NCBI RefSeq assembly: GCF_041886205.1 | Contig: NZ_CP169029.1 | Origin: Escherichia coli | GTDB lineage: Bacteria > Pseudomonadota > Gammaproteobacteria > Enterobacterales > Enterobacteriaceae | Reading direction: 5' to 3' (one strand) | DNA length: 64,000 bases | Shown: piece after piece, positions 19,370 through 19,654 of the stretch | How positions within the stretch are numbered: the first letter of the stretch is position 1 | Layout: the number at the start of each line of letters is the position of its first letter | Position numbers and translations under genes: made by a program | The notes under the pieces: generated by a model | The model's input: only the letters and a program-made list of their open reading frames with translations | Databases searched by the model: none | Told to the model about the DNA's origin: nothing

Positions 19370-19654
19370 ATTTTACTTCCTTCATTTTGGGCCTTTCGGC
19401 AAACAGGGCTTTAATACAGAAACTACTTAGTGTTCAGGAGAGAGACTCAAAAGAAGGGGATAATGCCTGATAATGAGAACTGCTTTAGTAAACTACTTTG
19501 TATGCTGTCTGTCTTTCAAACCGACGCAGCTATTAACGCATGATAATTGAGATTAAGCAAATTTTATTTTAGCCGTCCGGCGGTCTTAAATATCGCTGGC
19601 TTTATTTTATTAACCCCGTATAGTGCAGCGCAGTATTTTCAGTAAGGAATTTGT

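Follow-up and report, generated by a model that had tools for sequence, protein, structure and literature searches.

The 285-bp spacer that separates the divergent cold-shock genes cspG and cspH of Escherichia coli is best explained as a pair of back-to-back promoters that divide the available DNA unequally, with cspG transcribed behind a long leader of the thermosensor type and cspH served by a compact promoter that has no such leader. We give this reading a probability of about 0.85. The spacer was analysed within a stretch of 64,000 nucleotides from contig NZ_CP169029.1 (assembly GCF_041886205.1), hereafter the window, which corresponds in reversed orientation to the MG1655 genome at about 1.05 Mb and is 99.1% identical to it across 3955 bp. 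The genes on either side of the spacer, in window coordinates, are the following.

17468-18541, plus strand: yccM
18590-18763, minus strand: gnsA
18753-18983, minus strand: ymcE
18958-19146, minus strand: ymcF
19157-19369, minus strand: cspG coding sequence, a cold-shock domain of 70 amino acids (open reading frame, Pfam CSD, RefSeq annotation)
19655-19867, plus strand: cspH coding sequence, a divergent cold-shock domain of 70 amino acids (open reading frame, Pfam CSD, RefSeq annotation)

The start codons of cspG (ATG, 19369-19367, minus strand) and cspH (TTG, 19655-19657, plus strand) define the spacer between the two divergent genes as 19370-19654. Both products match the Pfam cold-shock domain (PF00313) along the entire protein, CspG with 114.7 bits and CspH with 81.7 bits against a cut-off of 27; the two proteins are 49% identical, and the N-terminal codons of cspH (TTG-TCC-CGT-AAA-ATG) run parallel to those of cspG (ATG-TCT-AAT-AAA-ATG). 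An earlier note on this DNA, made from the sequence alone, had described divergent cold-shock paralogues cspG and cspH 285 bp apart, and this description is exact in its coordinates and agrees with the Pfam matches and the RefSeq names. It was also correct in placing the start of transcription of both genes inside the spacer, as the divergent arrangement demands. The spacer is indeed AT-rich, with 38.2% GC as against 51.3% for the window, and only 3.3% of 285-bp segments are equally low in GC or lower; its characterisation as very AT-rich was nevertheless overstated. Two short plus-strand open reading frames in the spacer (19430-19543 and 19547-19645) fall inside the control sequence of cspG or run antisense to it and were not counted as genes.

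On the cspG side, transcription starts at 19525 (minus strand), which gives a 5' UTR of 156 nt (19370-19525). The start is listed in the table of Kim 2012 (1050528, plus strand, in NC_000913.2 / U00096.2 numbering, with a UTR of 156), the upstream sequence given there, CGGCTAAAATAAAATTTGCTTAATCTCAATTATCATGCGTTAATAGCTGCG, is identical to the window minus strand ending at 19525, and the strongest start found within the spacer by Cappable-seq on the MG1655 plus strand is the same base. The elements that accompany this start are listed below.

19570-19561, minus strand: A/T tract AAAATAAAAT, likely the cspG UP element to judge by its position and sequence
19560-19555, minus strand: cspG -35 TTGCTT, separated by 17 bp from the -10 and kept in paralogous spacers
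19540-19538 and 19537-19532, minus strand: cspG extended -10 TGc-GTTAAT (TGc and GTTAAT, respectively), 6 nt before the mapped start
19518-19508, minus strand: cold box UGAAAGACAGA, occupying +8 to +18 of the mRNA and part of the first hairpin in the Rfam model
19391-19400, minus strand: GCCGAAAGGC hairpin ('upstream box'), immediately before the ribosome-binding site of cspG
19376-19383, minus strand: cspG Shine-Dalgarno region GAAGGAAG, leader nt 143-150

The cspG promoter has sigma70 hexamers at the right distance from the mapped start, a G at 19525, and ATGCGTTAAT at its -10 is conserved among paralogous spacers. A generic promoter scan flagged neither this promoter nor the putative cspH promoter, and the mapped cspG promoter was missed because of the rule that the scan applies to position 2 of the -10. 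The scan candidate TTAAGA-17-TAAAAT (19589-19561) was rejected as the main promoter for want of a Cappable-seq start, and a terminator-like hairpin at 19577-19599 (plus strand) is probably due to chance. Within the leader of cspG, Cappable-seq also records four 5' ends of lower strength, at window positions 19443-19505 on the minus strand (1050548, 1050565, 1050582 and 1050610 in MG1655, U00096.2 numbering), which could be minor starts or else capped or processed artefacts of an unstable mRNA.

The transcribed part of this control sequence is recognised by the Rfam model of the cspA thermoregulator (RF01766), with 159.3 bits against a gathering score of 78 and E = 1.2e-42. The match covers 19103-19525 on the minus strand and model positions 1-428 of 428, running through the cspG coding sequence, and model position 1 falls on 19525, the published start of this cold-shock gene; the 3' terminator portion of the model aligns poorly at cspG. 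The family consists of the leaders of cspA, cspB, cspG and cspI, and the sequence in the window is the cspG member itself. A search for cold-box elements, as proposed in the earlier note, located one, UGAAAGACAGA, in the cspG leader. It is the sole match in the window (0.41 expected by chance) to TGAMRDACAGA, a consensus drawn from what we take to be the cold boxes of cspA, cspB and cspG, and it equals the presumed cspA cold box at 8 of 11 positions. The cold box aligns to the RF01766 hairpin at model positions 4-20 with high posterior probability and is kept in 23 paralogous leaders. The upstream box GCCGAAAGGC is likewise matched only once in the window (0.19 expected by chance), and across 24 leaders, including that of cspI, the stem of its hairpin is invariant and the loop variable. 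The features that the cspG leader has in common with the cspA thermosensor are a length of about 160 nt, a cold box near the 5' end, the GCCGAAAGGC hairpin before the Shine-Dalgarno sequence, and a long-range pairing between the leader and the beginning of the coding sequence, by which the ribosome-binding site is concealed at 37 C.

The last of these features was approached by folding. When the leader was folded together with 60 nt of coding sequence, the minimum-energy structure was a single long stem-loop, in which leader nt 61-73 are base-paired to the Shine-Dalgarno sequence and the AUG, and leader nt 21-60 to coding nt 160-197; the predicted probability of being unpaired is 0.26 for the Shine-Dalgarno sequence and 0.14 for the AUG, in a fold whose z-scores are not significant. 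The leader folded alone gave a shorter hairpin with the Shine-Dalgarno sequence unpaired. Fold energies were no better than those of shuffled sequence (z = -0.36 and -0.94), and equilibrium folding at 10 C returned the same structure as at 37 C and reproduced no switch. Applied to 24 paralogous leaders, which are too similar to be informative here, RNAalifold retained the long-range helix in its consensus structure, with 1 compensatory pair among 31 and several one-sided changes. As these statistics of our own are weak, the structural claim is carried by the Rfam model together with the probing and covariation already published. The cspG leader was shown experimentally to be an RNA thermometer (PMC13271884, 2025): DMS-MaPseq at 37 and 10 C distinguished two conformers for cspG, cspB and cspI, R-scape lent support to the base pairs, and deletion of the 5' UTR abolished cold-specific translation of CspG. 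The two folds predicted here for cspG match the conformers described in that study, through which both the cold induction and the UTR structure anticipated in the earlier note are on record for the cspG leader.

The mechanism that we propose combines these elements with those on the cspH side. A sigma70 promoter with an extended -10 and a UP-like A/T tract starts the cspG mRNA at 19525 (minus strand). Pairing of the leader with the opening ~40 nt of the coding region would build, at 37 C, one long stem-loop in which Shine-Dalgarno sequence and AUG are both buried. A shorter hairpin in shifted register, made from the leader only, would form in the cold and free the ribosome-binding site of cspG, so that CspG would be made mainly after a temperature downshift. 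On the opposite strand, cspH would be expressed from a compact promoter driven mainly by the -10 TATAGT with a weak -35, and its mRNA, devoid of a thermosensor leader, would have about 23 nt ahead of the TTG start, with AAGGA as a strong Shine-Dalgarno sequence. The start of cspG and the predicted start of cspH would lie about 107 bp apart, the two -35 regions flanking a central segment of about 36 bp.

Downstream of cspG, the gap to ymcF is 10 bp and cspG has no terminator of its own. A GC-rich hairpin with a T-run, terminator-like in appearance, occurs at 18935-18953 (minus strand) inside the annotated ymcE frame, and a strong published gnsA start also lies inside this frame at 18835 (minus strand; 1051218 in MG1655, NC_000913.2 / U00096.2 numbering), with a UTR of 72 nt and a Cappable-seq score of 74.8. 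This suggests that the cspG-ymcF transcript ends at the hairpin in ymcE, that gnsA starts separately, and that the coding status of ymcE is doubtful. The terminator hairpin downstream of ymcF is overlapped by a weak match to the Salmonella small RNA STnc220 in Rfam (18920-19000, minus strand; 34.1 bits, below the gathering score of 60).

The leader, promoter and UP element of cspG together fill the spacer from 19370 to about 19582, or roughly three quarters of its length, which leaves some 70 bp before the TTG of cspH. The earlier note had expected the spacer to hold the long 5' UTRs typical of csp genes, and this expectation holds for cspG, with its 156 nt and its RF01766 match, but not for cspH, for which about 70 bp are left; a search for a cspA-type RNA (RF01766) on the cspH (plus) strand gave no match in 17000-23000 even at E<=1. 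The remaining DNA and the elements assigned to it are as follows.

19561-19596: central segment, about 36 bp, between the cspG and cspH -35 regions
19596-19602, plus strand: putative cspH -35 CTGGCT/TGGCTT, weak (2-3 of 6 matches) and partly conserved
19619-19624, plus strand: putative cspH -10 TATAGT, 5 of 6 consensus positions, conserved in paralogues and in Salmonella
19630-19633, plus strand: cspH start as predicted from conservation (about 1051197-1051200, minus strand, in NC_000913.3), giving a leader of about 23 nt
19644-19648, plus strand: cspH Shine-Dalgarno AAGGA, strong, upstream of the TTG at 19655-19657

Conservation was assessed in an alignment of the window with the Qin cspB-cspF spacer, phages 2H10 and Tritos, and Salmonella cspH, and in 25 distinct spacers taken from 70 loci that carry the divergent pair; these spacers are 59-73% identical to that of the window, with the exception of the O157:H7 copy at 99.7%. 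On the cspH side conservation is limited to three blocks, namely 19596-19602, GTATAGTG at 19618-19625, and TAAGGAATTTnTTTG at 19643-19657, the last of which takes in both Shine-Dalgarno sequence and TTG and recurs in every homologue compared. The sequence between these blocks has diverged among E. coli cspH, cspF, phage cspF and Salmonella cspH as well as among the 25 unique spacers. From this pattern we infer that the blocks are the footprint of a promoter with TATAGT as its -10, a start at about 19630-19633 and a leader of about 23 nt. The central segment contains TTTATTTTAG, which is common to the phage-type spacers and to the DNA upstream of Salmonella cspH. The table of Kim 2012 has entries for cspG and gnsA and none for cspH, and the cspH promoter was found to be sigma70-dependent in vitro (PMC4551910).

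Of 5426 complete E. coli genomes, 5411 have the 285-bp spacer, and in 5082 records it is at least 99% identical. Among the 70 loci with the pair, 66 come from MG1655 Qin, phage records or IMG/VR contigs, and the remaining four are the window and three E. coli chromosomal loci. The cspB-cspF pair of Qin and other lambdoid elements has the same layout, in that a csp gene of the cold-inducible type stands opposite one of the cspF/H type, and its spacer is homologous to that of cspG-cspH over the full length, with all of the named elements conserved. The cspB-cspF spacers (Qin, 2H10, Tritos and the IMG/VR contigs) are 59-73% identical to the window and measure 295-300 bp rather than 285, the difference consisting of about 10 bp more towards cspF and about 6 more in the leader. 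The two pairs also differ in their surroundings, as the phage pair lies between the antiterminator gene Q and the lysis genes, whereas cspG-cspH is chromosomal and lies between yccM/gnsA and the gfc operon. In phages 2H10 (locus L006, 432-3296) and Tritos (locus L007, 431-3043), cspB and cspF are found between Q and the holin gene, with cspB oriented with the lysis genes and cspF opposite to them; the cspF-like open reading frame of Tritos is unannotated.

Salmonella enterica has a cspH whose protein is 81% identical (tblastn), with a TTG start, the same Shine-Dalgarno-start block and the same TATAGT -10, but without a divergent gene of the cspG/cspB type, the open reading frame upstream being unrelated. 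Upstream similarity between Salmonella and E. coli is confined to the cspH-proximal part, beginning 67 bp before the TTG according to BLAST and about 90 bp before it according to MAFFT. Effects of growth phase and cold on Salmonella cspH have reportedly been described by Kim et al. in 2001. Viral or proviral contigs with a cspH of the Salmonella type (81-83% identical; L008 and, from IMG/VR, L009, L010, L020, L022-L024, L026, L027, L029, L030 and L033) have no divergent csp partner within 1.2 kb upstream. In MG1655 Qin, upstream of cspI (locus L003, ~4960-5030), there is a decayed 5' end of a cspF/H-type gene with its Shine-Dalgarno block (AAAATTCCTGAAATCTTAAGGGTAAGATAAAAGGTCTTAATC compared with ACAATTCCTGTCATTTTACGGGACAAACAAATTCCTTACTG), a likeness at the level of sequence which suggests that cspI may once also have had a divergent partner of the cspF/H type.

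Several other accounts of the spacer have to be weighed against this arrangement. Long leaders are typical of cspA, cspB, cspG and cspI, and in one supplementary table on cold-harvested cells the reads of cspH and cspF rise alongside those of cspG (about 10-fold, 4-fold and 170-fold, respectively), which together would favour a long cspA-like leader for cspH too, transcribed from inside the promoter and leader of cspG or from beyond them, so that the divergent transcripts overlap. This is nevertheless highly improbable: besides the lack of an Rfam match on the cspH strand at E<=1, a promoter scan of 19370-19600 on the plus strand found no promoter-like site, plus-strand conservation upstream of 19596 is accounted for by the cspG elements, and Salmonella cspH retains just ~90 bp of upstream homology and lacks a divergent csp partner; a review-style statement, moreover, places cspH, with cspF, among the genes that are not cold-inducible and are uncharacterised. 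Quite unlikely, too, is transcription of cspH mainly by sigma32 instead of sigma70. Such transcription would proceed via CCCCGTAT (19614-19621), which overlaps the TATAGT -10 and resembles the sigma32 -10 consensus, CCCCATnT. The sites bound by the RpoH holoenzyme in genomic SELEX include the cspH/cspG spacer, with cspH marked, and putative sigma32 motifs consistent with the RNA-seq start of cspH were put forward in PMC4551910, the same study in which transcription in vitro depended on sigma70. The CCCC, however, is not kept in cspF, phage cspF or Salmonella cspH, all of which keep TATAGT, and no good sigma32 -35 occurs at the right spacing.

A different kind of explanation holds that the spacer and 19868-20308 owe their low GC content mainly to foreign DNA of phage origin, which nucleoid proteins may silence, rather than to specific control elements. 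The divergent csp pair with its homologous spacer of 295-300 bp is indeed a cassette of lambdoid phages and prophages, and the AT-rich cspH-gfcA region coincides with a very strong peak of RpoS-holoenzyme SELEX. As the main reason for the base composition, foreign origin is still unlikely, given that conservation in the spacer comes in blocks which fall on mapped or predicted elements (the transcription start, the hexamers, the cold box and the Shine-Dalgarno sequences), and that the locus is fixed and almost invariant across E. coli; the foreign-DNA reading and the reading as control elements are compatible with each other. The arrangement of back-to-back promoters could, in addition, be more than a matter of packing. 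It is a tentative suggestion, on the doubtful side of possible, that the two promoters are coupled via 19561-19596, that cspH is regulated together with or reciprocally to cspG, and that the whole divergent unit is a mobile cassette of lambdoid phages selected as a pair. Such coupling could come from a shared UP element, a nucleoid-protein site or local supercoiling. Hints in this direction are the rise of cspH and cspF reads with those of cspG in cold-harvested cells, the 20-fold induction of cspH by AZT in a 2024 study, and the conservation of the central segment even in Salmonella, where the cspG partner is missing.

Beyond cspH lies a second AT-rich stretch, which leads to the gfc operon and is composed as follows.

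19868-20308, plus strand: cspH-gfcA intergenic region, 441 bp, the intact gfcA upstream region, ending at the gfcA ATG (20309)
20309-20325 and 21584-21724, plus strand: 5' and 3' remnants of gfcA, respectively, from comparison with O157 and MG1655 gfcA
20326-21583, minus strand: IS3, 1258 bp, inside gfcA, with inverted repeats and the InsE/InsF open reading frames
21831-22475, plus strand: gfcB

The intergenic region has 35.1% GC, a value equally low in 1.3% of 442-bp segments, has the same length as in IS-free O157:H7, and is collinear with MG1655 up to the IS1D site at 20276-20284. A very strong RpoS-holoenzyme peak (intensity 167) was recorded by genomic SELEX in the K-12 IS1-cspH spacer, which corresponds to this region. 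The gfcA gene is broken by IS3 after nt 17-19, with a deletion of 146-148 bp (nt ~18-165), and resumes at nt 166 (21584); there is no target duplication at gfcA::IS3, and the junction found in the window occurs in 0 of 5426 complete E. coli genomes. The earlier note had spoken of a displaced gfcA promoter in this stretch. The AT-rich stretch itself is real, at 441 bp, but it abuts the gfcA ATG; a displaced promoter is the situation of K-12, in which IS1D is found 25-33 bp before the ATG. As IS3 sits inside gfcA in the window, the promoter region is separated from the rest of the operon and not from the start of the gene. An intact gfcA preceded by IS3 occurs in 37 other genomes (in FJ_Ec_21, the one inspected, IS3 ends about 107 bp short of the ATG), and the promoter and 5' region of gfc is a recurrent target of insertion sequences.

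The promoter of cspG, its 156-nt leader, its cold induction and its behaviour as a thermometer have already been published, and the locus, an ordinary and nearly invariant core feature of E. coli, carries little weight as a discovery. Its use lies in correcting how the spacer is annotated, in that roughly three quarters of it is control sequence of cspG and cspH would be left with a short leader and a promoter driven mainly by its -10, and in a corrected picture of gfcA, which is broken by IS3 in this genome, whereas in K-12 an insertion sequence parts the gene from its promoter.
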